A stretch of 64,000 nucleotides of DNA. It comes from an uncultured Christensenella sp. Its GTDB lineage: Bacteria; Bacillota; Clostridia; Christensenellales; Borkfalkiaceae. The stretch's first letter is position 1. Each line of letters opens with the position of its first letter. The stretch is from contig CAJTNY010000006.1 of the NCBI GenBank assembly GCA_910577875.1, positions 397 through 64,396 on the forward strand. Reading direction: 5' to 3'. The notes beneath the pieces were generated by a model. The model did not search any database. It was not told the origin of the DNA and worked only from the letters and a program-made list of their open reading frames with translations. This document shows positions 1,968 through 62,763 of the stretch, one piece after another. A program made the position numbers and the translations under genes.

Positions 1968-2723
1968 ATGGATAAAAATATTAACCGCTCGGTTTGCTTC
2001 TTTGACAGCGGTATAGGCGGACTAAGTTTATTATATGAATGCGTGCGCAGATTGCCGTGCGTAGATTTTACATATTTTGCCGATAATTTTCGTGTGCCGT
2101 ACGGTGCACTGACGCGTGAAGAATTAATAAGTATCGCCGATGAAAAGTTTACCAAGATAAGTAAACTTAAACCCATTGCTGCGGTATTGGCTTGTAATAC
2201 GCTTACGGCGCAGTGTATAGATTATTTAAGGCGGAAATACCCATTTGAAATTATCGGTATACAACCTGCAATTAAACCGGCTGCGGTCTGCAAAGGAAAA
2301 TGTGTCGTACTTGCAACTCCGTCAACTGCCGGAAGCAAATCTTTAAAATTGCTTGTCGAAAAATATGGCTTGGGGAATACTGAAGTTGTAGCTTGTCCCG
2401 ATTTGGCATATTATATAGAGAATAATATTTCTGAACTTTCGTTTGACAAAGTGAAACGGTTTTTGCCGGAAAAAAAAGCCGGCAGCGTCGTACTGGGTTG
2501 CACTCATTACGTGTTCGTGAAAGAGATGATAAAAGACTTTTATAACTGTCCTGTTTTCGACGGTATAGACGGGACGGCGGCGCATTTATGCGAAAAAATA
2601 GGGATTTTTGACCACCAATGTGAAAGAATACAAAAAATATCGTTTTTAAGCGGTGATACGGCTAAAAATCGACTTGTATTCAATACGCTTTTAATGAAAG
2701 GTGGAGTTAATTCCCAAAATTAA
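1968..2723 (+). CDS. murI: Glutamate racemase
   Basis: FFDSGIGGLS N-terminus and both catalytic Cys contexts (LACNT and LGCTHY). Confidence 0.9.
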   Translation: MDKNINRSVCFFDSGIGGLSLLYECVRRLPCVDFTYFADNFRVPYGALTREELISIADEKFTKISKLKPIAAVLACNTLTAQCIDYLRRKYPFEIIGIQPAIKPAAVCKGKCVVLATPSTAGSKSLKLLVEKYGLGNTEVVACPDLAYYIENNISELSFDKVKRFLPEKKAGSVVLGCTHYVFVKEMIKDFYNCPVFDGIDGTAAHLCEKIGIFDHQCERIQKISFLSGDTAKNRLVFNTLLMKGGVNSQN

Positions 2724-3261: not shown

Positions 3262-4203
3262 ATGAAAGACTTTGCGCATATTCCCGTAATGCTTGACGAA
3301 TGTATGGACGCGCTTGATATAAAAGACGGCGGCGTATACTTCGACGGAACAGTAGGCGGTGGAGGTCATTCGTTCGAAATACTTAGTCGTTCCGCTCCGT
3401 CGGGTAGGTTGATTGCCACTGATTTGGACGACGATGCCATTTCGGCGGCGACGGAAAGACTTTCGCTGTTTCGCGGTAGATTTGAAATTTTTAAATATGA
3501 TTATAAAAACTATGACGAAGTTTTAAATCTTGCCGGTGTGGAAAAACTCGACGGCGCTCTGCTCGATTTTGGGGTTTCAAGTTTTCAGCTTGACTGTGAA
3601 GAGAGGGGATTTTCATATATGAAGCCGTCGTCACCGCTTGATATGCGCATGGATAAAAATGCGGATTTAACAGCCGAAATAATTCTAAACGAATATTCGC
3701 AGAAACAGATTTCGAATATTTTAAAAGATTTCGGCGAAGAAAAATTTGCAAACCAAATTGCCGCGAACGTGGTTAAGTTTCGGAACGTCAGACGTATGAC
3801 GACCTGCGGAGAATTTGCGGAAATTATAGAAAACAGCATACCTGCTAAATTCCGTCATAACGGACCTTGCGCGAGAAAAAGTTTTCAAGCGGTAAGAATA
3901 GCGGTTAACGGGGAACTCGAAGGACTATACGAATGTATTTTGGGTTTGACGCGCAGACTAAAAAAAGGCGGAAGAATAGCGATTTTGACTTTTCACTCGC
4001 TTGAAGACAGAATAGTAAAACAAGCTTTCAGAATGCTTGAATGCGATTGTCTCTGTGATAAAAGTCTTCCGGTATGTGTTTGCGGAAAAATCAAAGAGAT
4101 AGAAATTTTAACTAAAAAACCGATAACCGCAAGCGTAAAAGAAACGGCGGTAAATTCGCGTTCGAAGTGTGCAAAACTTCGTGTCGCGGAGAAAATTATT
4201 TGA
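3262..4203 (+). CDS. rsmH: 16S rRNA (cytosine1402-N4)-methyltransferase RsmH
   Basis: HIPVML, DGTVGGGGHS SAM-binding motif, DFGVSSFQLD. Canonical position after mraZ. Confidence 0.92.
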   Translation: MKDFAHIPVMLDECMDALDIKDGGVYFDGTVGGGGHSFEILSRSAPSGRLIATDLDDDAISAATERLSLFRGRFEIFKYDYKNYDEVLNLAGVEKLDGALLDFGVSSFQLDCEERGFSYMKPSSPLDMRMDKNADLTAEIILNEYSQKQISNILKDFGEEKFANQIAANVVKFRNVRRMTTCGEFAEIIENSIPAKFRHNGPCARKSFQAVRIAVNGELEGLYECILGLTRRLKKGGRIAILTFHSLEDRIVKQAFRMLECDCLCDKSLPVCVCGKIKEIEILTKKPITASVKETAVNSRSKCAKLRVAEKII

Positions 4204-4223
4204 TTACGGTAAGGAGAAAAATT

Positions 4224-4952
4224 ATGGCAGTTGCATCGCCCGTATTGGAAAGGAATGCCGATACCGAAGAAAAAGAATATACAAGAGAATATCGCGATTC
4301 TTATTTAAGCGAGGAAGAGAGGCATAATTCGCGCATAAGCGAAAACTATGCGAGATTAATCAATCCCGAGAGCAGAACGAAAGATATACTGCCTTCAAGA
4401 AGCGCGGAGAAGGAAATTACAGTCGAGCAGACGGAAACTAATTCTGCTGCGCGTGAAATTTTATTCCAAAGACCTTATCTTGTTGAAAATGCGCGTGCCG
4501 ACGCGGATATTTTCCGTGCCGACAGCTCGGTTAACCGCAAGTTGTTTTCTGCGGAAACGGCGGTTCCTGAGTCTGTGACGGACGAGGAAGAGAACGAGGA
4601 TCTTCGTCCCACGCAGACAACAATTCAGTATAAAACTGCGGGAGTGGTAAAAACCGTTGAAGAAGGTAAAATTGCAACAAGACCTTCGCAGACAAAGCGT
4701 TCTGCTTTGACAAAGAAAGACAGAATAATAATAGCCGTTGCACTGTCGGTGATAGTTGCTTTATTTATACTTATAATAGTTAACTCGGCTGTTATTTCTA
4801 ACTTGAACAAAGAAGTCGGTGCGTTGCAAAACAATTTGACGCAGGCTGAAAACGCTTATTCGGAAGCTCTTGCCGAAACGGAAGATTTTAAGTCCAATTG
4901 GTATCAGGAAGTAGAGGATTTTGCAAATAAAAACGGAATGATTCTCGGTTAA
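4224..4952 (+). CDS. FtsL-like cell division protein with long N-terminal extension
   Basis: AAGGAG RBS 7 nt before the ATG at 4224, which is better than the track start at 4167. Single TM (IIIAVALSVIVALFILIIVNSAVI) followed by a short coiled-coil tail. Positioned between rsmH and the PBP. Confidence 0.55.
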   Translation: MAVASPVLERNADTEEKEYTREYRDSYLSEEERHNSRISENYARLINPESRTKDILPSRSAEKEITVEQTETNSAAREILFQRPYLVENARADADIFRADSSVNRKLFSAETAVPESVTDEEENEDLRPTQTTIQYKTAGVVKTVEEGKIATRPSQTKRSALTKKDRIIIAVALSVIVALFILIIVNSAVISNLNKEVGALQNNLTQAENAYSEALAETEDFKSNWYQEVEDFANKNGMILG

Positions 4953-6728: not shown

Positions 6729-8165
6729 ATGAAAATCGGCGAACTTTTAAAATACTTAGATTATAAAGAATTTACGGGCGACAGAGAAACGGTTTTTACG
6801 GGACTGTGTGCAGACAGTCAGAAAGTTAAACGCGGAGACTTGTTCTTTTGCTATGAAGGCGAAAATCACGATTCGCATCAATTTATATTCGAAGCTGAGA
6901 AAGCGGGTGCTTCGGCGGTTGTCTGCGAGAAAAGACTGCAGTGCACGCTCCCTCAGATTATAGTTGAAAACGGAAGAAAAGCCATCGCTCCTTCTGCACG
7001 TGCTTTTTACGGTTTTTCTGATAAGAAATTAAAAATCGTTGGAATCACGGGTACCAACGGCAAAACTACAACCGCTTATATGTTAGACGGTATTTTTAAG
7101 TCAGCCGGTAAAAAGACGGGTGTAATAGGGACTCTGGGTATAAGTTATGCCGATAAATTCGTTTCTCCCGAACTTACCACTCCTGACCCTATATTTCTGC
7201 ACTCTATATTTTTTGATATGTTAAACTGCGGTGTTGAATACGTGTTTATGGAGGTATCAGCTCACGCGCTTTATTACGATAAAATACACGGGCTGAAATT
7301 CGAAGTCGGCATTTTTACAAATTGCACTCAGGACCATCTCGACTTTTTTAAGAATATGGACGAGTACTCGGAATGCAAAAAGCTTTTGTTCGCTGACGGC
7401 AGGTGCGCATATTCTGTAATAAATTCCGACGATAATCTCGGACGTTGTATACTCGGGGATTGTAAAAACGTTATAAGTTACGGTCTGAAAAATCCTGCCG
7501 ACGTTTTTGCGGTAAATATTTCCGAGCGCATAGACGGTACTTCGTTCGTGATAAATCTTTTGGACGAACTGTACGATATGAAATTAAATCTGCCTGCGCT
7601 GCATAACGTTTATAATGCAATGGGCGCGGCGGCGTGCGCTAAAATTCTCGGCGTAAAGACGGAACATATTGCCAAAGGGTTAAGCGCTCTGAAAAACGTT
7701 TCGGGAAGATTGGAAAGAGTTGCAAGGTATAACGGCGCGGATATTTTCGTTGATTTTGCACATACTCCCGACGGACTCGAAAAATCTTTGCAAGCTTTGA
7801 AAAAATTATGTCAAGGCAAGCTTTATTGCCTTTTCGGTTGCGGCGGCAACAGGGATAAAAGCAAAAGACCACTTATGGGTGCGATAGCATCGAAGTATGC
7901 AGATTTTTGCATTATAACTTCGGATAACCCTCGGTATGAGGACCCGTATGATATCATTTCGGAAATAGAGGCGGGATTTAAGCCTTCGGGGAAAAAATAT
8001 GTAACCGTAACGGAGCGTGAAACCGCAACGGAATACGCGATTAATTTGCTTGAAAAAGACGATATCCTACTGGTTGCCGGAAAGGGCGGCGAATATTATC
8101 AGGAAATAATGGGAATAAAACATAGCTACAACGACAATACGGTAATAAAAAAAATCATCGGATAA
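6729..8165 (+). CDS. murE: UDP-N-acetylmuramoyl-L-alanyl-D-glutamate--2,6-diaminopimelate ligase
   Basis: GITGTNGKTTT P-loop. The DNPR motif (TSDNPRYEDP) is associated with meso-DAP-adding MurE enzymes. Confidence 0.9.
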   Translation: MKIGELLKYLDYKEFTGDRETVFTGLCADSQKVKRGDLFFCYEGENHDSHQFIFEAEKAGASAVVCEKRLQCTLPQIIVENGRKAIAPSARAFYGFSDKKLKIVGITGTNGKTTTAYMLDGIFKSAGKKTGVIGTLGISYADKFVSPELTTPDPIFLHSIFFDMLNCGVEYVFMEVSAHALYYDKIHGLKFEVGIFTNCTQDHLDFFKNMDEYSECKKLLFADGRCAYSVINSDDNLGRCILGDCKNVISYGLKNPADVFAVNISERIDGTSFVINLLDELYDMKLNLPALHNVYNAMGAAACAKILGVKTEHIAKGLSALKNVSGRLERVARYNGADIFVDFAHTPDGLEKSLQALKKLCQGKLYCLFGCGGNRDKSKRPLMGAIASKYADFCIITSDNPRYEDPYDIISEIEAGFKPSGKKYVTVTERETATEYAINLLEKDDILLVAGKGGEYYQEIMGIKHSYNDNTVIKKIIG

Positions 8166-12903: not shown

Positions 12904-13653
12904 ATGAAGTACTTAAGAAAAATATCTGCTTTGCTGATAGGTATAATTTTTTTTGCCGCGGTTGTAATAAGTCTCGGTATGATTTTTGCTGTTAAGAACA
13001 TAAACGTTACTATGGTAACTTACGCAGACGACTGTTCGGAGAGTTATAACAGTATAAAAAAATCGCTTGATGTTTTTAAAGGCGACAGTATCGTGTTTTT
13101 AAACGAAAACAATATAAAAGAAGCGGTTTCCGACAGTAATTATACGGTAGTTTCCTGTGAGAAAAAATTTCCCTGTACTGTTAACGTTACAATAAAAGAG
13201 CGGCTTGAAACTTTCGCTGTTTTGGTAGGCGGAATTTATTCTATGTATGATAGTGACGGAAAACTTTTAAGAAGCAGTGTTGAAAACGTCAATATTAACG
13301 ACGGGTCGCCGAATGTGGAGCTTACGGGCGTTATAGTTGAAAATATAGGCAAAATATCCGAAATAGCTTTTAAATTCAAAGATAAGTTTAAAGCGTTCCG
13401 ATCGCTCGTGTCAAGCGTAAGCCTTGACGAGAGGGCGGATATAGAAGATTATACGAATAAACTTTGTTTTAATTTGAGATGCGGACTGAAAATTCAGCTC
13501 GATAATTTTACCGAACGCACAGATGAAAAGCTTTCTGCGGTATACACGCAATTTTGTCAACTTACCGACAGACAAAAACTCGGTGGTACATTGAGAGGAT
13601 ATGAAAACGTAATAGGAGACGTTAAATCAGACTATAAAAAAAGCGGTTCTTAA
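12904..13653 (+). CDS. DivIB/FtsQ-like cell division protein
   Basis: N-terminal TM followed by a POTRA-like region. Sits immediately upstream of ftsA-ftsZ. Sequence is divergent. Confidence 0.6.
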   Translation: MKYLRKISALLIGIIFFAAVVISLGMIFAVKNINVTMVTYADDCSESYNSIKKSLDVFKGDSIVFLNENNIKEAVSDSNYTVVSCEKKFPCTVNVTIKERLETFAVLVGGIYSMYDSDGKLLRSSVENVNINDGSPNVELTGVIVENIGKISEIAFKFKDKFKAFRSLVSSVSLDERADIEDYTNKLCFNLRCGLKIQLDNFTERTDEKLSAVYTQFCQLTDRQKLGGTLRGYENVIGDVKSDYKKSGS

Positions 13654-13737: not shown

Positions 13738-14892
13738 TTGAATATGCGCAAAAAAAGCGTAGCGGTGTTGGATATACGTTCGTCCGAAGTGACTGCAGTC
13801 GTCGGTGAAAGAGGCGTAAACAATACGTTTATAATCAAAAGTAAATACACTTGCGCTTACGACGGATACGCGGAAGGAAAGCTGATAGACGAAGATGGCT
13901 TTTTGGCTGCGGTAAACGACGTTGTTAGAAGCACGGTATCTGCTTGCGGAGGGTTAAAGTCTTTTTATGTCGGCGTCCCCGGAGAATTTACAAAGATTGT
14001 AAACGTTGATAAAGTCGTGAGTTTCCAGTCGGCAAGAAAAATAACGAACGCCGACCGTGATTATCTTGCGGGCATATCGGCGCCCGAAAACACCGACAGA
14101 TATCAGACTATAAAGCATAGCTGTCTTTACTACGTATTGTCGGACAAGCGTAAAATTATTTATCCCGTCGGTATGGTCAGCGACAGTTTACAGGGCAGAT
14201 TCTGTTTTTATCAATGCAGAAACGATTTTATAGACGTTCTTTTAAAAGCTTTCGGCAAATTTAAAGATATTTCCGACATAAACCTTATTCCTACGGTTTA
14301 CGCGGAAGCTATGTATCTGCTCAGCGCGGAACAGCGTGACGAGTATGCTGTGTTGTTTGATTTGGGTTATATTTCGTCGAGTTATAGCGTTGTCTGCGGG
14401 AACGGACTTGCGTTTTGTGAATCGTTTTCCGTCGGCATCGGGCATATAGCAGTTTACCTTATGACTGAGCTGGATATTCCTTTTGACGTTGCGTCTAAAT
14501 TTCTTTCTATGGTCAATCTAAATGCAAAAGAAACGCTGAATACTTATGAGGAATGTGTATGCGAGGGTAAAACTTATAGATTTCTAACCGTGACTTTGCG
14601 CGATAAAATACGCGAGGGACTCGACGGAATCTGCGAAACCCTAGAAGCGTGCAGACAAAGTTTTACAGGAAAAAATATCGATGTAAGAACAATCAATATT
14701 ACCGGCGAGGGCGTAAAAGTAATACGTGGAACTGCCGAACATATTTCCAACAGACTCGTTAAAAACGTGGAGATAGTTTCGCCTGCGGTGCCTTATTACG
14801 ATAAACCGCGGTTCTCGTCGCTTTTAAGTCTATTGGATGCCGCCCTAATAGATGCGGGTTCAGTATCATTTTTGAGTTTTTTTAATAAATAA
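13738..14892 (+). CDS. ftsA: Cell division protein FtsA (actin-like ATPase)
   Basis: VAVLDIRSSEVTAVVGE phosphate-1-like N-terminus. Hydrophobic/amphipathic C-terminus. Immediately upstream of ftsZ. TTG start with AGGA 6 nt upstream; ATG at 13744 is an alternative start. Confidence 0.75.
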   Translation: MNMRKKSVAVLDIRSSEVTAVVGERGVNNTFIIKSKYTCAYDGYAEGKLIDEDGFLAAVNDVVRSTVSACGGLKSFYVGVPGEFTKIVNVDKVVSFQSARKITNADRDYLAGISAPENTDRYQTIKHSCLYYVLSDKRKIIYPVGMVSDSLQGRFCFYQCRNDFIDVLLKAFGKFKDISDINLIPTVYAEAMYLLSAEQRDEYAVLFDLGYISSSYSVVCGNGLAFCESFSVGIGHIAVYLMTELDIPFDVASKFLSMVNLNAKETLNTYEECVCEGKTYRFLTVTLRDKIREGLDGICETLEACRQSFTGKNIDVRTINITGEGVKVIRGTAEHISNRLVKNVEIVSPAVPYYDKPRFSSLLSLLDAALIDAGSVSFLSFFNK

Positions 14893-34319: not shown

Positions 34320-35393
34320 ATGAAAAACGGAACAGCGTATTTAACTTTACAAAACGGTAAGCAATTTGTAGGCAAACGCTTCGGTGCGGACGGCGATATT
34401 ATCGGTGAACTCGTGTTTACGACAGGTATGACGGGTTATATAGAAACATTGACCGACCCGAGTTATTATGGACAAATAGTTATGCAGACATTTCCGCTTA
34501 TAGGTAACTACGGCATTATACCGTCTGATTTTGAAAGCAAAAAACCCTGGGTTTCGGCTTATGTTGTAAGAGAGAAGTGCGACGAGCCTTCAAATTTCAG
34601 ATGCGAAAAAACTATCGACGAGTTTCTCTCCGAAAGCGGAATAGTCGGTTTATACGGTATAGACACACGCGAGCTCACGAAAATAGTCAGAGAAGCTGGA
34701 GTTATGAACGCGGCTATAACTTCCAAACCGCTGAAAGATTTGAGTCTGGTCAACGGTTATGTAATAAAGAACGCGGTCGACAGCGTTACTTGCAGGGAAT
34801 TACAGTATTACGGTAATCCGAACGGGATTAAATTAGTCGTTTGGGATTTCGGCGCAAAAGACAATATTATACGCGGACTCGTTAAACTCGGTTGTTATTG
34901 CATAAAAGTACCTTCGTTTTATACTGCGGAGCAAATATTAGAACTTAATCCCGCGGGACTTATGCTTACCAACGGACCCGGCGACCCTGCCGATAACAAA
35001 GGAATAATCGAAAACCTTAAAAAACTGGCGGGCAAGCTTCCTATATTCGGAATTTGTTTGGGGCATCAGTTATTGGCGCTTGCGATGGGCGGTAAAACCA
35101 AGAAAATGAAGTACGGACACAGGGGCGCGAACCAGCCGGTTAAAAATCTCGTAACAGGCAGAGTTTATATTTCGAGCCAGAACCACGGTTTCGAGGTGGT
35201 GACTTCGAGTCTGCGCGCGGGGAAACTATCTTATATCAACGTTAACGACAATACCTGCGAGGGTATAGATTATCCGGAACTCAACGCGTTTAGCGTGCAG
35301 TTTCATCCGGAAGCTTGCGGAGGTCCTCACGACGCTTCTTACCTTTTCGATAAATTTATAATCAACATTAAGGACGGAAAGTATAATGCCTAA
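34320..35393 (+). CDS. carA: Carbamoyl-phosphate synthase small (glutaminase) subunit
   Basis: Class I GATase triad context GICLGHQLL and HPE. Overlaps the carB start. Confidence 0.95.
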   Translation: MKNGTAYLTLQNGKQFVGKRFGADGDIIGELVFTTGMTGYIETLTDPSYYGQIVMQTFPLIGNYGIIPSDFESKKPWVSAYVVREKCDEPSNFRCEKTIDEFLSESGIVGLYGIDTRELTKIVREAGVMNAAITSKPLKDLSLVNGYVIKNAVDSVTCRELQYYGNPNGIKLVVWDFGAKDNIIRGLVKLGCYCIKVPSFYTAEQILELNPAGLMLTNGPGDPADNKGIIENLKKLAGKLPIFGICLGHQLLALAMGGKTKKMKYGHRGANQPVKNLVTGRVYISSQNHGFEVVTSSLRAGKLSYINVNDNTCEGIDYPELNAFSVQFHPEACGGPHDASYLFDKFIINIKDGKYNA

Positions 35394-38300
35394 GAGAGAA
35401 GATATTAAAAAAGTACTTGTGATAGGTTCGGGTCCGATTGTTATCGGACAAGCTGCTGAATTCGACTATGCCGGCGCACAGGCTTGTCGCGTGCTTAAAG
35501 ACGCGGGTATCGATGTTGTTTTGTGCAATTCGAATCCTGCTACGATAATGACGGATCGCGCTCTTGCGGACGAAATTTATCTCGAACCTTTAACTGTAGA
35601 TAGTTTAAAAAGAATTATCGTTAAAGAGCGTCCCGACAGTCTTTTGGCTTCGCTTGGTGGTCAAACCGGGCTTACGCTCGGTTGTCAGCTTGCAAAGTCG
35701 GGGTTCCTCGACGAATACGGAGTAAAATTAATAGGAGTAAATCTCGAATCAATCGACCGAGCGGAAGATAGGGAGCTGTTTAAGGAAACGATGCAGAAAA
35801 TCAATCAGCCTGTCGTTCCCTCGGATATAGCTTATACCGTAGAAGAGTGCGTGGCAATCGCGGAAAAAATCGGTTATCCTGTAATCGTACGTCCGGCCTA
35901 CACGCTCGGCGGAGCGGGTGGCGGAGTTGCCGAAAACGAAGAAGAGCTTAGAATGATTTCGCATAACGGATTGATGCTTTCGCCTATTACGCAGGTACTG
36001 ATTGAAAAATTTATTGGCGGTTGGAAGGAAATCGAATTCGAAGTTCTGCGCGACGGCGCAGGAAACGTTCTTACGGTGTGTTCTATGGAAAATATAGACC
36101 CCGTAGGAATTCACACGGGCGATTCGATAGTAATAGCACCTGCTGTAACGCTTTCCGATAAAGAATACCAGATGCTTAGAACCGCTTCGCTTGATATTAT
36201 AACTGAACTCGGTATAGAGGGAGGCTGTAACTGTCAGTTTGCGCTTCATCCCGATTCGTTCGAATATGCGGTAATAGAAGTAAATCCCCGAGTTTCGCGT
36301 TCTTCCGCACTCGCTTCCAAAGCGACGGGATTCCCAATTGCAAAGGTATCGACTAAAATTGCGCTCGGATATACGTTAGACGAGATAAAGAACGATGTTA
36401 CAGGCAAAACATATGCCTCTTTCGAGCCCACAATAGATTATGTCGTCGTCAAACTTCCTAAATGGCCGTTCGATAAATTTCTTTATGCGAAGAGAAATCT
36501 CGGAACAAGAATGAAAGCGACCGGCGAAGTCATGGCGATAGGAACCAGCTTTGAAATGGCTATTATGAAGGCTGTAAGAGGCGCGGAAATTTCTGTTGCG
36601 ACGTTAAATCTTCCCAAATTTGCCGCGCTTTCAGACGATGAAATCATCGAAAAACTTTCAGAGCTTACCGATGAAAGATTATTTGTCGTTTATGAGGCTA
36701 TAAAACGCGGTGTTCCGATTGAAAAAATTTATTCGATTACTAAAATCGACGAATGGTTTTTATATAAATTTAAAAATCTTTCCGATTATGAAAAGGAAAT
36801 TTCCGGAGTTAAGATAACGCCCGAACAGTATCTGCGCGGTAAAAAACTCGGTTATCCAGATAGAGAACTTGAAAAGTTCTCCGGCTGTGCGCTTCCTAAG
36901 CACGTAAACGCTGTATTTAAAATGGTTGACACGTGCGCTGCGGAATTTTCCGCGCAAACGCCTTATTTCTATTCGACGTACGATGAAAAGGAACATGACG
37001 AAGCAAGACAGTTTGTAAAATCCGGAACTAAGAAGAGAATAGTGGTTATCGGTTCGGGTCCTATAAGAATAGGTCAGGGTATAGAGTTCGATTATTCTTC
37101 CGTACATTGTGTATGGGCTTTGAAGCGTTTAGGATACGAAGTTGTAATTATAAACAATAACCCCGAAACTGTTTCGACGGACTTTGATACTGCAGACAGA
37201 TTGTACTTCGAAGCATTGACTCCCGAAGATGTTCAGAATGTTCTCGATATAGAAAAACCTTACGGTGTTGTTATAACGTTCGGCGGACAGACTGCTATCA
37301 AGCTTTGTAGTTATCTCGATAAGAAAGGAGTGCGTATTCTCGGAACGCCTGCGGACAGCGTAGACCTTGCCGAGGACAGGGAGAGATTTGACGCTCTTTT
37401 GGAACAGTTCGGTATTGCACGCCCCAAGGGACTTACGGTAATGACTAAAGAAGAGGCAGTGCGTGCGGCCGAAACGCTTGGTTATCCCGTACTTTTGCGA
37501 CCTTCATACGTTATCGGCGGACAGAATATGACTATTGCGTTTACGCAAAACGATATCGAAAGATATATGGACGTAATTCTCGCGCAGAACATTGAAAATC
37601 CCGTACTTTGCGATAAATATCTTATGGGAACAGAGCTCGAAGTTGATGCTATTTCCGACGGTACGGATGTACTGATTCCCGGCATAATGCAGCATATAGA
37701 AAGAGCGGGCGTTCACAGCGGAGACTCGATTGCGGTTTATCCTCCGTATAATTTAAGCGATGCGATGCTTAAAAAAGTAGTTGATATTTCGACTAAACTT
37801 GCAGTCTCTTTAAAAACCAAGGGATTAATCAATATACAGTATCTTATCTATCAGAACGAACTTTATGTTATAGAAGTAAACCCGAGAGCGTCGAGAACTA
37901 TTCCTTATATATCTAAAGTCACGGGCGTTCCTATGGTGGATATTGCAACGCAGATTTTAATGGGGGCAAAATTGAAAAAGCTCGGTTATGGTACGGGGCT
38001 TTATCCAAATTCTCCGTATGTGGCAGTCAAAGTGCCGGTTTTCTCGTTCGAGAAGCTCAATGATGTTAATTCACAGCTCGGTCCCGAAATGAAATCGACC
38101 GGAGAAGTGCTCGGTATCGGCAAGACAATTGAGGAAGCGCTTTTCAAAGGTCTTGTGTCTGCTGGGTTCAATATGAAACATCCGACGAAACAAAATCCGT
38201 CGGGGGTTTATCTTACTGTTAACGACCAGGATAAGTTTGAAATAGTTAATATAGTTAAAAAGTTTGCCGATCTCGGGCTTACGTTGTACGCTACGAAAGG

Positions 38301-39435
38301 CACTTGTCAGGTTATTAAAAGTCTCGGATTGGAATGCAGCGAAGTTGCGAGATTGTCCAGCAATGAAGAAATTTTCAAGCTTATGGACGAGGGTAAGATT
38401 GATTATATAGTTTATACAGGCAAAACGGATGTGGAGTCAATATCGAACTATATAAGTATGCATCATCACGCGATATTGCTCGGTATTACGGTTCTTACGT
38501 CTTTGGATACGGCTAACGCGCTTGCTGACGTAATTGCGGGTAGATATAATCAGTTCAATACCGAACTCGTGGATATAAACAAGCTTAGAAAAGAGAAATT
38601 AAAACTTAATTTCTGTAAAATGCACAGTTGCGGAAACGATTACATTTTCTTCAATAATATGGACGGAGGTATAACGTGTCCCGAATCACTTGCGATTAAT
38701 TTTTCCGACAGACATAATGCTATCGGCGCGGACGGGGTTGTAATGATAGAAAAGTCCGATGTTGCCGATGCGAAAATGAGAGTGTTCGGCAAAGACGGTA
38801 GCGAATGCGGTCTTGCGGCAAATCCGTTAAGGTGCGTTGCGAAATATCTATTTGATAATGGTTTGGTAGCTGAAACGGTTAAAGTAGAGTGTAACTGCGG
38901 AGTTAAAGAACTTTCAGTAAACTCTTTCAACGGCAAGGCAAGTTCGGTTTCCGTCAATCTCGGTAAAGCTGTATTTAACGGAAGTTTTATACCTTCGGAA
39001 TTCGACGGTAATATTATAGATAAAGAATTAAGCTTCGGCGGTCAGACATATAGAACGACGCTTATTAATGTGGGCAATACTCATTGCATAGTTTATTGTG
39101 AAACAATCGATGATATAGATATCGAAGCTTTGGGTCAGGCAGTTAACGATTCAGGTTATTTTCCTCACGGGGTGTTTGTGGAATGCGTGCGTATAGTAAA
39201 CAACGTTACCGTAAAAATGCGCGTTTGGGATAAAGTGAACGGTGAAACGCGTTCGTGCGGAACGGCGGCTGCTGCCGTAGCTGTTGCCGCCATCGTTGGC
39301 GGTTACTGTCGCAAAAATGAAATTATTACCGTTAAATCCAACGGCGGGGATTTATTTGTTAAGCTAAACGAGAACGATGAAATCGAGCTTGACGGAACGG
39401 TTAAACAATCTTTTGAAGGCACGATAGAGATTTAA
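35386..39435 (+). CDS. carB: Carbamoyl-phosphate synthase large subunit fused to a C-terminal DapF-like (diaminopimelate epimerase fold) domain
   Basis: Two ATP-grasp halves and an MGS-like domain up to about residue 1070, then a continuous frame into about 275 aa that starts LNFCKMHSCGNDY. Total 1349 aa, versus about 1070 aa for typical CarB. Confidence 0.9.
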   Translation: MPKREDIKKVLVIGSGPIVIGQAAEFDYAGAQACRVLKDAGIDVVLCNSNPATIMTDRALADEIYLEPLTVDSLKRIIVKERPDSLLASLGGQTGLTLGCQLAKSGFLDEYGVKLIGVNLESIDRAEDRELFKETMQKINQPVVPSDIAYTVEECVAIAEKIGYPVIVRPAYTLGGAGGGVAENEEELRMISHNGLMLSPITQVLIEKFIGGWKEIEFEVLRDGAGNVLTVCSMENIDPVGIHTGDSIVIAPAVTLSDKEYQMLRTASLDIITELGIEGGCNCQFALHPDSFEYAVIEVNPRVSRSSALASKATGFPIAKVSTKIALGYTLDEIKNDVTGKTYASFEPTIDYVVVKLPKWPFDKFLYAKRNLGTRMKATGEVMAIGTSFEMAIMKAVRGAEISVATLNLPKFAALSDDEIIEKLSELTDERLFVVYEAIKRGVPIEKIYSITKIDEWFLYKFKNLSDYEKEISGVKITPEQYLRGKKLGYPDRELEKFSGCALPKHVNAVFKMVDTCAAEFSAQTPYFYSTYDEKEHDEARQFVKSGTKKRIVVIGSGPIRIGQGIEFDYSSVHCVWALKRLGYEVVIINNNPETVSTDFDTADRLYFEALTPEDVQNVLDIEKPYGVVITFGGQTAIKLCSYLDKKGVRILGTPADSVDLAEDRERFDALLEQFGIARPKGLTVMTKEEAVRAAETLGYPVLLRPSYVIGGQNMTIAFTQNDIERYMDVILAQNIENPVLCDKYLMGTELEVDAISDGTDVLIPGIMQHIERAGVHSGDSIAVYPPYNLSDAMLKKVVDISTKLAVSLKTKGLINIQYLIYQNELYVIEVNPRASRTIPYISKVTGVPMVDIATQILMGAKLKKLGYGTGLYPNSPYVAVKVPVFSFEKLNDVNSQLGPEMKSTGEVLGIGKTIEEALFKGLVSAGFNMKHPTKQNPSGVYLTVNDQDKFEIVNIVKKFADLGLTLYATKGTCQVIKSLGLECSEVARLSSNEEIFKLMDEGKIDYIVYTGKTDVESISNYISMHHHAILLGITVLTSLDTANALADVIAGRYNQFNTELVDINKLRKEKLKLNFCKMHSCGNDYIFFNNMDGGITCPESLAINFSDRHNAIGADGVVMIEKSDVADAKMRVFGKDGSECGLAANPLRCVAKYLFDNGLVAETVKVECNCGVKELSVNSFNGKASSVSVNLGKAVFNGSFIPSEFDGNIIDKELSFGGQTYRTTLINVGNTHCIVYCETIDDIDIEALGQAVNDSGYFPHGVFVECVRIVNNVTVKMRVWDKVNGETRSCGTAAAAVAVAAIVGGYCRKNEIITVKSNGGDLFVKLNENDEIELDGTVKQSFEGTIEI
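38602..39432 (+). other. DapF-like domain of the CarB fusion
   Basis: DapF landmarks present: KMHSCGNDY, DGSE....RCVAKY, VGNTHCIV, GETRSCGTAAAA. The first catalytic Cys position (CGNG) reads AANP. Confidence 0.75.
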
Positions 39436-40562
39436 TGATTTATCTTGATAATGCGGCGACCACAAAGCCTGTCGAACAATGCGTCAAAAATGCAGAAAGA
39501 TACCTTTTAAGGGAATATTATAACCCTTCCGCATTGTATGCGGAAGGTTATAATTTGAACCTTGAATTAAAAGAAGCAAGGCGAAAAATTTTATCGTTTA
39601 TAGCGGACGAAAATAATTTTTCGCTTAATTTTACTTCAAGCGGAACAGAAGCGGATAATCAGGCTGTATTTTGCGGAGGCAAGAGAGGCAATATCGTGAC
39701 TACTCTCGGCGAACATTCTGCAGTCTATTCGGCGGCTGAGGAGCTTAAACAGAGAGGAACAGAAGTAAGATTTGCAAACCTTAACTCTGACGGAAGTGTA
39801 AATACAAAGCATTTATTAAGTCTTATCGACGAAAAAACATCTTTGGTTTCCGTTATTCATGTAAATAATGAAACTGGCGCGATAAACGATATTTTTAAAA
39901 TTGCAGAAGAGGTAAAAATTAAAAATAAATATGCGCTCTTTCATTCCGATGGCGTACAGGCTTTCGGTAAGTTTTCGTTTAAACTTACGAAAAATATTGA
40001 CTTATACTCGGTAAGTGCGCACAAAATCGGCGGAGTAAAAGGTTGCGGAGCATTAATCAGGAGAAAAAATCTTGTAATAAAACCTTTTATATTCGGCGGG
40101 GGACAGGAAAATGGATTCCGAAGCGGAACCGAAAACGTGTTTGCAATAAAGTGCTTTGAAATGGCGGCGGAAATTGCATTTGAAGATATAAACGTTTCAC
40201 GCGAAAAAGTCAAAAAATTAAACGTTGCTATGCGTTCCCTTTTGGATAATGAAGTTTTCAGAATACTTTCCTATGATGATGCTTCGCCATATATTCTTGC
40301 AGTATCCGCGGCGGGATTACGCGGAGAGACGGTTCTTCACGAAGCCGATGACAACGGTCTTATAATCGGAACGGGTTCTGCGTGTTCTTCAAATGCGAAG
40401 AAACGTTTTTCCCGTGTTATTTTGGCTTGCGGGGCTGATAAACAGACTGCCGACGGAGTCCTAAGATTAAGTTTTTCTTCGGAAAACACGATTGACGAAG
40501 TTAAAACCGCCGCGGAAATTTTAAATAAAATAGTAAAAAACAGATTAAATATAATGGCGTAG
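39435..40562 (+). CDS. Cysteine desulfurase (NifS/IscS-like, class V aminotransferase)
   Basis: YLDNAATT N-terminus, PLP lysine in SVSAHKIGG, active-site GSACSS. ATG overlaps the carB stop (TAATG). Confidence 0.88.
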   Translation: MIYLDNAATTKPVEQCVKNAERYLLREYYNPSALYAEGYNLNLELKEARRKILSFIADENNFSLNFTSSGTEADNQAVFCGGKRGNIVTTLGEHSAVYSAAEELKQRGTEVRFANLNSDGSVNTKHLLSLIDEKTSLVSVIHVNNETGAINDIFKIAEEVKIKNKYALFHSDGVQAFGKFSFKLTKNIDLYSVSAHKIGGVKGCGALIRRKNLVIKPFIFGGGQENGFRSGTENVFAIKCFEMAAEIAFEDINVSREKVKKLNVAMRSLLDNEVFRILSYDDASPYILAVSAAGLRGETVLHEADDNGLIIGTGSACSSNAKKRFSRVILACGADKQTADGVLRLSFSSENTIDEVKTAAEILNKIVKNRLNIMA

Positions 40563-40563
40563 T

Positions 40564-41718
40564 ATGGAAAAAGTAATTATAATCAGATATGCTGAAATAC
40601 ATTTAAAAGGCAAAAACAGAGGCTGGTTTGAGCGCGTATTTGTTGTTAATATAGAAAAGAGTCTTAAAGGACTAAAACACGAAATCCGTCGTCACAGCGG
40701 AAGGTATTTAATTGAAAATTTCGAAGATAGCGAAACTGAAATAATTCTTGAAAGATTGAAAAGAGTTTTCGGAATACATTCTTACAGCGTTTCTTTAAAA
40801 GTTTGTACAGATATGGACGCCGTATTCAATGCGGCGAAAAGTGTATGTGCGGCGGAAGGTAAGTTTAAAGTAAATACTCATAGGGCTGATAAAAATTTTC
40901 CTTTAAATTCAATGCAGATTAGTGCGGAAATCGGCGGACGTCTTTTAGACGTTAACAGTAAAATTAAAGTCGATGTGCACAATCCGGATTTCATAATCAA
41001 TATAGATTTGCGTGAAAACGGAACTGCACTTGTATTTAACGAGTTTTTTAAAGGTGCGGGCGGTATGCCTGTCGGCACTTCCGGAAAAGGAATGCTCCTT
41101 ATTTCCGGCGGAATTGACAGCCCTGTAGCGGGGCATATGATTGCAAAGCGCGGTATGAGTATTGATTGTGTTCATTTTCATAGTTATCCCTATACGAATA
41201 TGCAGGCGCGTGAAAAGGTAATAGAGCTTACCAAACATCTTTCTTCTTATACTTGCGGCTCAAAATTGAACATTGTTTCGGTTACGCAAATACAAGAGGA
41301 AATTCATAAAAAATGCAACGGCGATTATATGGTAACTTTATTAAGGCGATTTATGATGCGCATTGCGGAAAGAATAGCAATAGACAGCGGTGCGCAATGT
41401 CTGATTACCGGTGAGAGTCTGGCACAGGTGGCTAGTCAGACTGTGGAGGGAATGACTTCGGCAAGCAGCGTTCTTAAAACGCTTACGGTTCTTCGTCCGT
41501 TATGTGGATTCGATAAAGATGAAATAATTGAACGGAGCAGGGCGATAGGCACTTATGAAACTTCCATAGAGCCTTACGAAGATTGCTGTACTGTATTTTT
41601 GCCGAAACATCCTGTAACCCGTCCAAAACTTTGCGATGTGATAGCGGAAGAGGAGAAGCTAAATGTAAACGCACTTGTTGATGAAGCTTTGAAAACTCTC
41701 GAAACTTTAATATTATAA
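40564..41718 (+). CDS. thiI: tRNA 4-thiouridine synthase ThiI
   Basis: N-terminal ferredoxin-like/THUMP region and PP-loop SGGIDSPVAG. Paired with a cysteine desulfurase. Confidence 0.9.
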   Translation: MEKVIIIRYAEIHLKGKNRGWFERVFVVNIEKSLKGLKHEIRRHSGRYLIENFEDSETEIILERLKRVFGIHSYSVSLKVCTDMDAVFNAAKSVCAAEGKFKVNTHRADKNFPLNSMQISAEIGGRLLDVNSKIKVDVHNPDFIINIDLRENGTALVFNEFFKGAGGMPVGTSGKGMLLISGGIDSPVAGHMIAKRGMSIDCVHFHSYPYTNMQAREKVIELTKHLSSYTCGSKLNIVSVTQIQEEIHKKCNGDYMVTLLRRFMMRIAERIAIDSGAQCLITGESLAQVASQTVEGMTSASSVLKTLTVLRPLCGFDKDEIIERSRAIGTYETSIEPYEDCCTVFLPKHPVTRPKLCDVIAEEEKLNVNALVDEALKTLETLIL

Positions 41719-59151: not shown

Positions 59152-62100
59152 ATGGTCGTTAAAAGACAAAAGAAAATTGAAGAACAAATGTTATTTGATA
59201 ATGCTCCAGTTGAAAGCGATGATTACGAAATCGAAGCGCAAATTTTGGATGCACAGGTGAAAAAGCAGAACGTTACAAATATAGGCGTTGTGGCAACTTA
59301 TGGTGCGGGTAAAAGCAGTGCTATTAATACTTATTTAAAAAGATATAGAAAAAAAGGGATATGCCAACCCAAACATGTACAGATTTCTTTAGCTGATTTT
59401 AATAAAGACGAAATCGATGCTAATAATGAAAATAATAATTACAGCGAGAATGCCATTGAAAGAAGTATCTTGCAACAATTATTTTATAGTCAAAAAAGAT
59501 ATAATTTACCGAAATCAAGTATTAATAGGACGAACAAGTCAAGTTGGTTGTTAACAACTGGTTGTGCGTTATTGTCTATAATTTTTATATTATCTGTTAT
59601 TGTATTATCCTTTGAAATAAGCGGTAACGGTTTATTTAATGTTAACAATTCTTCAATTGTTAATTCTATTGCAAGTTGCGTTGCAACGATTTCTTTAGTG
59701 GTCGCAATTATTTGTTTAGCTAAATTTGGATATCTAAAGAAAGTAAAGTACAAAGATTTAGAGATAGCTATTGATGAGAAAGGTAATGTTCCCCAAGATT
59801 ATTCGTTATTTAACAATTTTATTAATGAGGTGCTTTACTTTTTTGAGTGCATTAATGTCGATTTAGTTATATTTGAAGATTTAGACCGTTTAGATAATTT
59901 AAAAATATTTGTTAAACTTAGAGAGTTAAATACTATTATTAATAATAGTCCGAGAAAAGCAAATAAAGTTACGTTTATTTATGCAGTAAAAGATTCGATG
60001 TTTAAGGATGAAAATCAGAGAGCAAAATTTTTTGAATTTATTTTGCCTATAATTCCTGTAATTAATCCTGTAACTTCTTTTGATAATATCGATAAAATGC
60101 ATAAGCAGTTAGCTACTTTAGATTCTTCATTAAAATTGTCAGAACAATTTTTAAAAGATATTTCATTTTATGTTTCTGATATGCGAGTGCTTAAAAACAC
60201 ATTCAATGATTATGTTATTATGGTAAATAAATTATCGGAAAATTTAGATAATAAATTGCCGTTAAAGAAAGAGAATTTATTTGCTTTGGCTTTATATAAA
60301 AACTTATATCCCTATGACTACTCGAGATTGCAGAAGAATGAGGGATTAATACCACTATGCATAGAAAAAGATAAATTAATAGAGTATTACAAAACAGATA
60401 TTGTAAATCGAATTAATGACCTTGAAAGCGAGAAAAAAAGGATTGATAGTGAATTTTTAAAAGATTTTGAAGATTTAAAATTGATATTTAAAGGTCAACA
60501 TTTTTCTTGTAATACATTAAGCAAATATGGTATTGAATATGTTGACAATATAAATACGTTTGAAGGTATAAACTTTCTTCGTCATCCGGTTCATACGGGA
60601 TATGCGGTTCAAGTTCAAAATTTGCCTAATGGTGAATCTTATTTTGAAAGAGAGAAAATTATTAAAGATAAAACAAATGAAAGATTAGCCGAGATAGATA
60701 ATGAAATCAGAGAATGCAAAAGTAAAATTGAAGAAATAGAGATAAAAACTTTTAATTCTTTATTGAAAGATTATGGAATTGAAAAATATTTTTCGGAGGA
60801 AAATTTAGCAAAAATAAAAGCAGATTATAAAGAATTAATTGCAAATGAGCTGTTTAAAGGACAAGCGAAAGAAAAATTATTTAATGATGAAAATGAGAAA
60901 AGATTCGATTTGCAATCGGATTTTATAAGAATGCTGATACATAAAAATTATTTGGATGAAAATTATTTGGAATACACATCAAATAATATATCTGATTTGT
61001 CATTAAATGACAGAGAATTTATTCGTAACGTAAAACAAGGTTATGTTAGAACTTACAATTACAAATTGGATAATGTAAAGGCAGTAATTATCAGTTTGAA
61101 TGAAGAAGATTTCTTGCAACCTGCGGTATTGATTAAAGATATATGTTTATCATTAAGCAAAATACAAGCATTAGATTTTAATAACAAAAATAAATTCGAG
61201 AATATAATGTCATTATTAGCTACGGGTAGTAAGCTCGTGGTTAATGCCGTAATTGAATTTTTAAATGTTTCAAATAATGAAGAAAAAGCAGCTTTCTCGA
61301 AATATATTGCGGAATATTCTTCGGAACTTATTAAACCTCTATTTTTAAAAGATATAAGCAAAGTTGATAAAGATATTTTTATAAAAACGCTTATCAAAAA
61401 TAATAAGATTGATATATTGCAAAAGAAGGTAATTAAAAATTATATTCAGGAACATACGAAATATCTGCAATTATTTGATGATTTAAACTCATCAAGAGTA
61501 TGTGATTTGATAAATGTTTTAAATTTACAGTTTAATTTAATAGACTTAACTAATGGCAAAGATGAAGTTTATAAATTTATTGTTAATAGTGGGAATTACA
61601 ATCTTACAGTGGACAACCTAAAGATTATATTGGATATCAATGAGTCAAACATATTTGATTTTGAAGAGAAGAACTTTTCTTTTATTCCGGATAGCGGCAA
61701 TGATAGTTTAATTAATAAAATAAATCATAACTTGTCTGATTATTTAAATAACGTTTTTATTAAATTGCCTAATAGTAATGAATCAGAGAAGGTGTTTAAA
61801 GCATTTTTATTAAATAAAAAATTAGATAAAGAAACTAAATTAAAACTAATAAAACATTCTAAAGTAAAAATAGAAAATATTAAAGATTTAGATGAACAAC
61901 TTTATGAAGATTTACTTATTGCAAACAAAATTGAAGCATTATGGACGAATATTTTTTCAGTATATAAAATCAGTCAGTATAGGAATTCATTAAAAGAATA
62001 TATATCGTTGAATAACGGAAAAATAAATGGTTCATATGCTAAACAAGATATAAATTTGCTAATAGATTTATTTAATTACTTATTAGCAGCGAATTTATCA

Positions 62101-62763
62101 GAAGAAATATATTCAAATTTAGCTAAGTCAATAGATATTCATTTTACAATGACAAGTGCTTATGCAAAGAATGAAAATTGCAAACAATTTGTATTAAATG
62201 GCTGTTTCATATACAATGTAAACGATATGTCTTTAATGTCAAATACTCATAATATGTTTCCTTATTTGATATGCCATCAAGATGAAATATTAAAAGCAAT
62301 GAGTCAATTTTTTAGAGGGCACACATTTGAAGCTTCATATATGAAAGCAATAATTGATGACAAAGATTTAAGGACTGAATTTAAAAAAGAATTTGTTTTT
62401 AAATGCGGAGATTCATTAGTTGATTTAGTCGGCATAGAAACAAAACTTGCACAATTTATTGTAGATAGCAACTGCAATATGACTGAAAAACTTTTGTATA
62501 AATTTACAGATGTAAATATTGATGAATCATTGAAAGTTGAGTTGTTATCAATTGCTGTAAATCAAAATATAATAACAAACTTTAATAGTTTTAAAAGTTA
62601 TTTCACTTCTATTTCTGAAGATTATGCCGAACTGTGGAACGAGTCAAGGAAGACTATTTTGGAAGATACTCCTAAAATAAGGTCTATAGCGAATTATATG
62701 AAAGAAAAGGACATTGCTACATATACACCGAGAAAAGGTAAATTATATTTGCGGTGTTCGTAG
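59152..62763 (+). CDS. Giant KAP-family (YobI-like) P-loop NTPase with two transmembrane helices inserted in the NTPase domain
   Basis: Walker A GVVATYGAGKSS, two hydrophobic helices (residues about 130-195), Walker B LVIFEDLDRLDN, then about 900 aa of K/N/I/L-rich helical sequence. Strongly AT-rich. Weak RBS; ATG at 59188 is an alternative start. Confidence 0.8.
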   Translation: MVVKRQKKIEEQMLFDNAPVESDDYEIEAQILDAQVKKQNVTNIGVVATYGAGKSSAINTYLKRYRKKGICQPKHVQISLADFNKDEIDANNENNNYSENAIERSILQQLFYSQKRYNLPKSSINRTNKSSWLLTTGCALLSIIFILSVIVLSFEISGNGLFNVNNSSIVNSIASCVATISLVVAIICLAKFGYLKKVKYKDLEIAIDEKGNVPQDYSLFNNFINEVLYFFECINVDLVIFEDLDRLDNLKIFVKLRELNTIINNSPRKANKVTFIYAVKDSMFKDENQRAKFFEFILPIIPVINPVTSFDNIDKMHKQLATLDSSLKLSEQFLKDISFYVSDMRVLKNTFNDYVIMVNKLSENLDNKLPLKKENLFALALYKNLYPYDYSRLQKNEGLIPLCIEKDKLIEYYKTDIVNRINDLESEKKRIDSEFLKDFEDLKLIFKGQHFSCNTLSKYGIEYVDNINTFEGINFLRHPVHTGYAVQVQNLPNGESYFEREKIIKDKTNERLAEIDNEIRECKSKIEEIEIKTFNSLLKDYGIEKYFSEENLAKIKADYKELIANELFKGQAKEKLFNDENEKRFDLQSDFIRMLIHKNYLDENYLEYTSNNISDLSLNDREFIRNVKQGYVRTYNYKLDNVKAVIISLNEEDFLQPAVLIKDICLSLSKIQALDFNNKNKFENIMSLLATGSKLVVNAVIEFLNVSNNEEKAAFSKYIAEYSSELIKPLFLKDISKVDKDIFIKTLIKNNKIDILQKKVIKNYIQEHTKYLQLFDDLNSSRVCDLINVLNLQFNLIDLTNGKDEVYKFIVNSGNYNLTVDNLKIILDINESNIFDFEEKNFSFIPDSGNDSLINKINHNLSDYLNNVFIKLPNSNESEKVFKAFLLNKKLDKETKLKLIKHSKVKIENIKDLDEQLYEDLLIANKIEALWTNIFSVYKISQYRNSLKEYISLNNGKINGSYAKQDINLLIDLFNYLLAANLSEEIYSNLAKSIDIHFTMTSAYAKNENCKQFVLNGCFIYNVNDMSLMSNTHNMFPYLICHQDEILKAMSQFFRGHTFEASYMKAIIDDKDLRTEFKKEFVFKCGDSLVDLVGIETKLAQFIVDSNCNMTEKLLYKFTDVNIDESLKVELLSIAVNQNIITNFNSFKSYFTSISEDYAELWNESRKTILEDTPKIRSIANYMKEKDIATYTPRKGKLYLRCS

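Follow-up and report, generated by a model that had tools for sequence, protein, structure and literature searches.

We analysed a 64,000-nucleotide stretch of contig CAJTNY010000006.1 from an uncultured Christensenella sp. (the whole stretch is called the window below) and found that its carB gene, which belongs to carbamoyl-phosphate synthetase (CPSase), is joined in frame to a domain derived from the diaminopimelate (DAP) epimerase DapF. The fused gene, written carB::dapF here, is one forward-strand open reading frame (ORF; 35386..39435) of 1349 codons plus a stop, and it encodes a complete CarB followed by a full DapF fold. The first of the two catalytic cysteines of DapF is replaced by alanine, and the second one is retained. 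Judged from the mutagenesis of homologues, the DapF-derived domain almost certainly does something other than epimerise DAP. An initial annotation of this DNA had described a carB ORF of 1349 codons that reaches a DapF-like tail without a stop, and this description was confirmed, as was every other factual point of that annotation; no stop or frame change was present in the window sequence around 38480-38720, between the MGS-like allosteric domain of CarB and the tail.

The initial annotation had proposed a hidden Markov model domain scan and a structure prediction for this ORF. The Pfam scan recovered the CPSase_L, MGS and DAP_epimerase families in the one ORF, with CPSase_L_D1/D2 found twice, D3 and MGS (aa 952-1037) found once, and DAP_epimerase (PF01678) found in two halves in the tail (E 6e-34). 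The CarB part matched the NCBIfam equivalogs NF003671 (1443 bits, cutoff 599) and TIGR01369 (1407 bits, cutoff 1027) over the full length with all domains present, and carA adjoins it in translational coupling, both as expected for the CarB family. The tail (aa 1075-1347) scored 187-192 bits with the DapF model TIGR00652, whose cutoff is 114.65, and phmmer against the PDB matched it to the Bacillus anthracis DapF 2otn (E 3.8e-45). An AlphaFold2 (AF2) model of aa 930-1349 had a mean predicted local distance difference test (pLDDT) score of 85.5, and its DapF-derived part reached template modelling (TM) scores of 0.84-0.90 against solved DapFs. In its full-length profile match and its two-lobed fold, the tail thus agrees with the DapF family; the window domain matched neither the PhzF nor the Pro_racemase (PF05544) Pfam model.

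The active-site columns were tabulated across approximately 300 relatives, with 134 non-redundant canonical DapFs among them, and are numbered as in E. coli DapF (the sequence used is identical to PDB 5ygu/4ijz). In phmmer alignments to the PDB DapFs 2otn, 9mro, 3ejx and 8qzy, SECGLAANPLRC of the window paired gap-free with SEGKSCGNGLRC, and the Cys73 column of the window is therefore Ala (Ala1144), as the initial annotation had claimed from AANP standing in place of CGNG. This column was Ala in 95% of the window's clade and Cys in 100% of the canonical DapFs. Also in agreement with that annotation, the second catalytic Cys (C217 column) was retained, the window SCGTAA being aligned to the canonical ACGTGA. 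The thiol/thiolate pair of Cys73 and Cys217 that defines DapF catalysis is thus incomplete in the window, and no conserved Cys, Ser or Thr replaces the lost Cys73 among the tabulated relatives. The annotation had considered that the nearby Cys of an SEC motif might take over the catalytic position. This was ruled out, since the motif is SES in a 92% identical orthologue and SDG or SEG in most relatives, so that the Cys is not conserved even in the closest orthologue. The Cys residues at columns 9, 79 and 160 were rejected as substitutes as well, being variable and also present in canonical Clostridial DapFs.

The structure of DAP-bound Corynebacterium glutamicum DapF (CgDapF) describes a clamshell that shuts on its substrate, with a catalytic sub-site made of C73, C217 and E208 together with the backbone and side chains of G74, N75, G218 and S/T219, and a recognition sub-site for the L-end of DAP made of N64, N157, N190 and R209 (PMC5296763). 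In the canonical DapFs, C73, C217, N64, N190 and R209 were all 100% conserved, E208 99% and N157 95%. The relatives lacking Cys73 formed two tiers. In tier 2, a large group, only C73 was changed (A 82%, G 15%, S 3%), and every DAP contact was kept. Tier 1, to which the window belongs, carried the additional changes G74A (98%), G76P (94%), F193C (86%), R209K (89%) and G220A (97%); its N190 column was F/Y in 99% (F 59%, Y 40%), its E208 column was relaxed (E 63, D 16, G 14), and its N157 was partly K. At N64/N157/N190/E208/R209, the window reads G/N/F/D/K and tier 1 reads N, N/K, F/Y, E/D/G and K, with N64G confined to the window and its 91-92% identical relatives P0001 and L002. The L-DAP recognition sub-site is accordingly altered in the window. 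Within the carboxylate cradle, N11, N75, G218 and T219 were kept, and G74, G76 and G220 were Ala, Pro and Ala, respectively. Approximately 30 canonical positions, including N11, D12, N75, R78, H159, T214, C217, G218 and T219, were close to 100% in both tiers.

The functional weight of these columns is given by the Ala mutants of CgDapF at C83, C221, N15, N74, N85, N159, N194, E212, R213 and T223, which were almost inactive (PMC5296763). The window is altered at all five columns that match C83, N74, N194, E212 and R213. Because of this mutagenesis and the changed columns, two-base epimerisation by the window domain can be regarded as excluded for practical purposes.

Relatives of the locus were collected by a scan of one genome per species, which gave 64 loci with tails 50-92% identical to that of the window, all from metagenome-assembled genomes (MAGs) labelled Christensenella sp., Christensenellaceae, Candidatus Borkfalkiaceae, Candidatus Coproplasma or Clostridia bacterium. 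The exact fused protein was seen on three metagenome contigs. In the approximately 55 loci with enough upstream DNA, the CarB part and the DapF-like part lay in a single ORF of 1343-1362 codons, and these full-length ORFs carried the in-frame fusion with Ala at the Cys73 column. Dozens of independent protein fragments recovered by the protein search bridged the MGS domain and the DapF domain. In close pairs, dN/dS (Nei-Gojobori) ranged over 0.01-0.04 in the CarB part and 0.02-0.13 in the DapF-like part. The latter changes faster than CarB (64% against 90% mean identity), and it is clearly under strong purifying selection. An essential catalytic residue has thus been lost from a fold that is kept under purifying selection, as expected of a pseudoenzyme or of a ligand-binding regulatory domain derived from an enzyme.

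These data bear on the suspicion that a missed stop or a frameshift, introduced in sequencing or assembly, has created the tail, or that it is a decaying dapF relic carried along neutrally. The suspicion draws some support from three database entries, P0094 (L067), P0098 (L068) and P0068 (L073), in which the two parts look like separate genes at first sight. In each case, however, an individual assembly has runs of N or one in-frame stop that explain the split. P0094 had been a candidate for a free-standing Ala variant in an arginine operon and was rejected, as its frame continues (LVDINAMRL) and the split consists of scaffold Ns; the separate-gene reading of P0098 and P0068 was likewise rejected in view of one in-frame stop and runs of N, respectively. 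One of these three loci shows the fusion within an argJ-argB-argD-argF-carA-carB operon. With the intact ORF recurring in approximately 55 independent genomes, the predicted fold intact and neutral decay ruled out by the dN/dS of 0.02-0.13, an artefact or relic is scarcely credible. The initial annotation had named a stop or frameshift between carB and dapF as the observation that would overturn the fusion, and it had suggested a search for the same fusion in related genomes; no such break separates the two parts, and the fusion was found in approximately 55 species-level genomes. In the L068 locus itself (L068:5307-9350; GCA_054290425.1, JAZPGL010000014.1), carB::dapF is broken by the one in-frame stop, between …PPYYAV and VPVFSFEK…, which marks either a pseudogene or a sequencing error; a 449-aa Mur-ligase-family gene and an Amidase_3 gene lie directly 3' of it, and argG and argJ lie 5'.

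To place the cysteine loss in time, fusions that keep both cysteines are informative. An exhaustive search of 1.84 billion cluster representatives returned 15,224 homologues, and CarB-DapF fusions with both cysteines were sought, and found, among the best 150 of them. P0128 is a full-length example (1349 aa; CarB 1469 bits, DapF 282 bits), and P0124, P0126 and P0134 are long fragments of such fusions; P0068 and P0120, which came from the first protein search, are likewise two-Cys fusions. The fusion alone is therefore not the unusual part, as CarB-DapF fusions are widespread in MAGs and some keep Cys73. The junction was equal in architecture and length in the Cys73-keeping and the Cys73-less fusions (...CLTSLDTANA..SRY...NTELVDINxMRxxKxKLx on the CarB side, FxKMxGCGNDY on the DapF side), and in it the natural end of CarB passes directly into the natural start of DapF, which the loss of a stop codon between adjacent genes would produce. 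Since this junction is shared by the Cys73-keeping fusions, the joining of the two genes preceded the Cys loss, which occurred in one large subclade. The TIGR00652 score steps down in the same direction, from 282 bits in the Cys-keeping fusion to 272 in tier 2 and approximately 190 in the window.

In a neighbour-joining tree without bootstrap, the Cys-less variants grouped into what is essentially a single 70-leaf clade that includes one Cys leaf, and tier 1 was nested within tier 2. The tier-2 protein P0022 is encoded at a locus syntenic with the window (nifS, thiI, PBP1, miaB, mutS, mutL), and the two tiers are therefore orthologues at one locus. The same tree placed the Cys-keeping fusions among the free-standing canonical DapFs, and for this reason a single origin of the fusion, which is likely, is argued from the shared junction rather than from the tree. 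The likely order of events is adjacency of the two genes, fusion with an active DapF, loss of Cys73 and remodelling of the recognition sub-site. The Cys-less and Cys-keeping fusions have R2, E27, S28, A58, L84, T201 and C234 in common, and N18, E49, R195, N198 and K241 are specific to the Cys-less clade, which suggests new surface constraints. Cys217 was also lost in a few lineages with the DAP contacts kept, namely P0056 and P0059 (G73/S217) and P0093 (A73/S217).

Several individual relatives depart from the common pattern. P0093 (407 aa, 168 member sequences) carries N157E and has a precomputed FeoA (PF04023) match on its N-terminal side. P0031 (281 aa; contig L066:1-1362) is the only convincing free-standing Ala73 variant; approximately 90 nt 5' of it lies the C-terminus of another gene of the same DapF-derived type, ending in ...GGELKIHYTDERVLMTGKAEKVYDGVVEV and a stop, which suggests a tandem duplicate beside a fused copy, on a short low-coverage contig that could be chimeric. 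P0127 (512 aa) consists of an OTCase N-domain, then a CarB C-terminal tail and a Gly73 DapF-derived domain, and P0226 (427 aa) joins a GNAT acetyltransferase to a canonical Cys73 DapF. At the syntenic tier-2 locus, carB::dapF and nifS are separated by a 204-aa gene with a faint DUF6106 match (L077:2396-3010) that the window lacks.

The reading that we favour, and to which we would give an even chance, is that the DapF-derived domain has become an accessory module of CPSase which no longer epimerises DAP and which binds a ligand, dimerises or does both; both the ligand binding and the effect on CPSase are our inference. According to this model, the stop codon between adjacent carB and dapF genes would have been lost to give a bifunctional CarB-DapF. 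In one large subclade of gut Clostridia, Cys73 of the N-lobe then changed to Ala or Gly, removing the thiol/thiolate pair needed for epimerisation. Recognition of the L-end of DAP was affected next, as the residues of that sub-site were remodelled in the lineage of the window, which comprises Christensenellales / Borkfalkiaceae / Coproplasma-like MAGs (N190F/Y and R209K; in the window also N64G and E208D). The domain that resulted is an intact two-lobed clamshell with a conserved cleft, and a short, flexible linker ties it to the allosteric domain at the C-terminus of CarB. The clamshell would close on a small ligand of the amino acid type, DAP itself in tier 2 and a relative of it in the window, and ligand closure and/or dimerisation would modulate the activity or the oligomeric state of CPSase. 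The accessory-module reading is favoured because tier 2 loses only the catalytic Cys and keeps all DAP contacts, and because the conserved positions of the Cys-less clade suggest new surface constraints; thiol chemistry appears dispensable, since P0056, P0059 and P0093 have lost both cysteines and keep the domain. A precedent for a non-catalytic role exists in E. coli, where DapF activates RppH by binding it (PMC6061791). Moreover, Christensenella cell walls are reported to contain LL-DAP (PMC7937921), and an epimerase is then not needed for the wall in that lineage. A narrower version, in which the domain is an allosteric sensor that binds DAP (in tier 1, a related cell-wall or amino-acid metabolite) without turnover and tunes the carbamoyl-phosphate output to the pool, is conceivable and rather doubtful.

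Several observations weigh against an accessory module. Conservation of Cys217, His159, Gly218, Thr219, Asn11 and Asn75 reaches 98-100% in tier 1, which exceeds the obvious needs of ligand binding and fits residual thiol chemistry. The AF2 run on aa 930-1349, made with an alignment of 37 sequences and with CarA and the rest of CarB absent, gave no confident interface between the allosteric domain and the DapF-derived domain; the 12-residue linker was disordered (pLDDT < 50) and the predicted TM score was 0.64. A rigid interface between CarB and the DapF-derived domain was thus rejected as unsupported, and the model therefore gives no structural support for allosteric coupling. In addition, if these genomes have no separate dapF and still make lysine via LysA, an epimerase would be needed.

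The strong conservation around the remaining thiol is one reason to consider that the domain is instead a single-base, Cys217-only enzyme with altered chemistry and/or substrate, with a DAP-like or D-configured amino acid undergoing, for example, elimination, dehydration or one-sided protonation. In tier 1, Cys217 is conserved at 100% and His159, Gly218, Thr219, Asn11 and Asn75 at approximately 100% in spite of a mean identity of 64%, and the pocket changes are concerted and conserved (A74, P76, F/Y190, C193, K209, A220), which looks like re-specification rather than decay. The fold is also known to host other substrates and chemistries, as seen in HisR and in the Foldseek matches to 7vdy, PhzF and trans-3-hydroxy-L-proline dehydratases, and there is a parallel in pyridoxal phosphate (PLP)-independent racemase folds that change reaction type on losing one acid/base member. 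Arylmalonate decarboxylase is a one-Cys derivative of a two-Cys racemase fold, and the C73A DapF of Haemophilus influenzae reportedly still eliminates hydrogen fluoride from fluoro-DAP. However, tier 2 keeps all DAP contacts, and a lone Cys217 acting on DAP gives no net reaction; some lineages keep the domain despite Cys217 being changed to Ser; and carAB are the only consistent pathway neighbours, as nifS and thiI serve tRNA thiolation. We consider such an enzyme, the main rival of the accessory module, possible, though on the unlikely side. The initial annotation had left the choice between a pseudoenzyme or ligand-sensing module and an enzyme of altered chemistry, and this pair of alternatives agrees with the altered DAP sub-site, the purifying selection and the clade-wide loss of the Cys.

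Far less probable is a bifunctional CarB-DapF that still converts LL-DAP to meso-DAP with another proton donor, water or a residue, and serves as the DapF of the organism. Its tail does score above the TIGR00652 equivalog cutoff, and close two-Cys fusions exist that are presumably active. DAP also seems to be used, since murE in the window has the DNPR motif that the initial annotation had reported (aa 399 of 6729-8165), which indicates DAP-type peptidoglycan. Furthermore, tblastn with canonical and Ala-variant DapFs detected no second dapF in the 64 kb of the window, nor in flanks of 64 related genomes that total 752 kb, and dapL was likewise absent from the window and these flanks; neither result bears on the rest of those genomes. 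On the other hand, the C83A mutant of CgDapF (equivalent to C73A) is nearly inactive, as are the mutants at the equivalents of N64, N190, E208 and R209, no conserved Cys, Ser or Thr stands in for Cys73, and the TIGR00652 score falls steadily from the Cys-keeping fusions to the window. An epimerase is also not obligatory for the wall, given the LL-DAP reported for Christensenella. If the LL-DAP wall holds for the lineage of the window, its MurE would use LL-DAP, and LysA-dependent lysine synthesis would be the only process left that needs meso-DAP.

The genomic setting of canonical dapF in related Clostridia is different. The free-standing two-Cys DapF P0112 is encoded between an ABC transporter and an aminotransferase gene, and the canonical dapF genes of P0115 and P0084 belong to a glutamate-synthase/glutamine-synthetase cluster, with pyrG and again this aminotransferase gene next in line. 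The aminotransferase is the LL-DAP aminotransferase DapL (TIGR03542, 536 bits, cutoff 365), and thus canonical dapF in these Clostridia belongs to the DapL lysine/DAP pathway. The Cys-less form is attached to carB, and canonical dapF lies next to dapL, not carB. The pairing of canonical dapF with dapL was consistent on the metagenomic contigs examined (L069:1-14000, L070:1-12000, L074:4110-6374), two of which carry a nitrogen-assimilation cluster of asnA, an archaeal-type glutamate synthase, glnA, ANTAR, dapF, pyrG, dapL and asnB.

Compared with canonical DapF (EC 5.1.1.7; E. coli 4ijz, B. anthracis 2otn, C. glutamicum 5m47), the DapF-derived domain shares the two-lobed fold and the full-length profile match, and it keeps the approximately 30 core and cleft positions (N11, N75, H159, C217-G-T) and an aromatic residue at the Y268 dimer position. 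It differs in Cys73 being Ala and in G74A, G76P, N64G, N190F, E208D and R209K in the window, and in being covalently joined to the C-terminus of CarB, whereas canonical dapF is free-standing beside dapL. The two-Cys CarB-DapF fusions (P0128, P0124, P0126, P0068, P0120 and P0134, all uncharacterised) are identical to the window protein in domain order and junction. In them, C73 and all DAP contacts are retained, the TIGR00652 score is 282 bits, and the identity to free-standing canonical DapFs is 64-80%; the window domain shares only 36-46% identity with these fusions and has a stripped catalytic site. E. coli DapF bound to RppH (PMC6061791) shows that the DapF fold can modulate another enzyme by protein-protein contact, irrespective of which reaction this partner carries out; unlike the domain described here, it remains active as an epimerase, its target is a Nudix hydrolase on which it acts in trans, and it has no known link to CarB. 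Other members of the fold group, such as the histidine racemase HisR (PMC11602996) with CntK, the O-ureidoserine racemase DcsC (7vdy), PhzF and trans-3-hydroxy-L-proline dehydratase, have acquired new pocket residues together with a new substrate, and in this group the loss of one acid/base member accompanies a new reaction type. HisR, CntK and DcsC keep both cysteines and PhzF uses Glu/Asp, whereas the DapF-derived domain keeps the second Cys only. In the trans-3-hydroxy-L-proline dehydratases the second Cys is changed to Thr; here the first one is changed to Ala/Gly, and no new polar residue appears. The likeness to the one-base Pro_racemase enzymes, which match PF05544 and carry Thr for the second Cys, is one of fold level only (TM approximately 0.6).

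The features of the locus are listed in Table 1. The 3' end of carA overlaps the start of carB by 8 nt, and the nifS-like gene starts at 39435, sharing 1 nt with the stop of carB::dapF (TAATG), as the initial annotation had noted. That annotation had also placed the fusion within a carA-carB-nifS-thiI operon. Among the 64 related loci, carA lies 5' of carB::dapF in 56, and the order carA - carB::dapF - nifS - thiI - PBP1 (the last on the other strand) is kept in approximately 60, in support of that placement.

Table 1. Features of the carB::dapF locus, and murE, in the window
Feature	Coordinates	Strand	Evidence or remark
carA (CPSase small, glutaminase subunit)	34320..35393	+	ORF; CPSase_sm_chain and GATase matches on identical contig
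carB::dapF fusion	35386..39435	+	Pfam, NCBIfam; orthologous ORFs of 1343-1362 codons in about 55 genomes
CarB part, aa 1-1051 (two ATP-grasp halves, oligomerisation domain, allosteric domain)	35386..38538	+	NF003671, TIGR01369
MGS-like allosteric domain of CarB, aa 952-1037	38239..38496	+	Pfam PF02142, E 1.8e-10
Junction/linker, aa 1054-1074, YNQFNTELVDINKLRKEKLKL	38545..38607	+	AF2 pLDDT < 50 for aa 1054-1065
DapF-derived two-lobed domain, aa 1075-1347	38608..39426	+	TIGR00652, PDB 2otn match, AF2
Gly1135, Asn64 column, DAP recognition sub-site	38788..38790	+	Alignment
Ala1144 (GCG), catalytic Cys73 column; AANP vs canonical CGNG	38815..38817	+	Alignment
Phe1264, Asn190 column, DAP recognition sub-site	39175..39177	+	Alignment
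Asp1282-Lys1283, Glu208-Arg209 columns (contact DAP amino and carboxyl groups)	39229..39234	+	Alignment
Cys1291, second catalytic Cys (C217 column), in SCGTA	39256..39258	+	100% conserved in the window's tier
nifS-like cysteine desulfurase	39435..40562	+	Aminotran_5; 3' of carB::dapF in 60 of 64 loci
thiI (tRNA 4-thiouridine synthase), last gene of conserved cluster	40564..41718	+	ThiI_fer/THUMP/ThiI; 60 of 64 loci
murE with DNPR (aa 399), context only, outside the operon	6729..8165	+	Pfam Mur ligase domains, motif

Other parts of the window hold a few genes of related interest. A 251-aa protein encoded 5' of the division and cell wall (dcw) cluster (1968-2723, forward strand) has a weak Asp/Glu/hydantoin racemase match (E 3.3e-10) and is presumably a divergent MurI, which would make it a second PLP-independent two-Cys racemase family in the window. 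Three forward-strand ORFs of the dcw/cell-division cluster (4167-4952, 12904-13653 and 13738-14892) had no Pfam match at E <= 1e-5 and are probably divergent division genes of the ftsA/ftsQ/ftsL type. A further ORF of 1203 aa (59152-62763, forward strand) has an N-terminal YobI-like P-loop NTPase domain (PF20693, E 2.7e-94), with the other approximately 800 aa giving no Pfam match.

The literature search found no description of a CarB-DapF fusion, in line with the initial annotation, or of a Cys73-less DapF clade, and nothing specific on DAP or lysine metabolism in Borkfalkia or Christensenellales. Both parts of the protein belong to well-known families, and fusion followed by the loss of catalytic residues is a known evolutionary pattern. 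The practical consequence is one of annotation. The DapF-derived domain passes the DapF equivalog cutoff, and pipelines will label it DapF or 'bifunctional'; metabolic reconstructions of gut bacteria of the Christensenellales/Borkfalkiaceae type would then credit them with a meso-DAP/lysine synthesis that this protein probably cannot perform, and the mislabelling affects the predicted auxotrophy and cell-wall type of a widespread, largely uncultured gut lineage. The relatives also form a natural series, from free DapF through the active fusion and the Cys73-less form with an intact pocket to the remodelled pocket, with both cysteines lost in some lineages, which lends itself to studies of how enzymes turn into pseudoenzymes or take on new functions. 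Should the domain regulate CPSase, a classic allosteric enzyme would have gained a new effector input. If it acts as a DAP-type sensor, UMP/UTP for UDP-linked peptidoglycan precursors and/or arginine would be supplied in step with a metabolite pool, and a previously unknown regulatory link from cell-wall precursors to pyrimidine and arginine synthesis would exist across a whole order of gut Clostridia.

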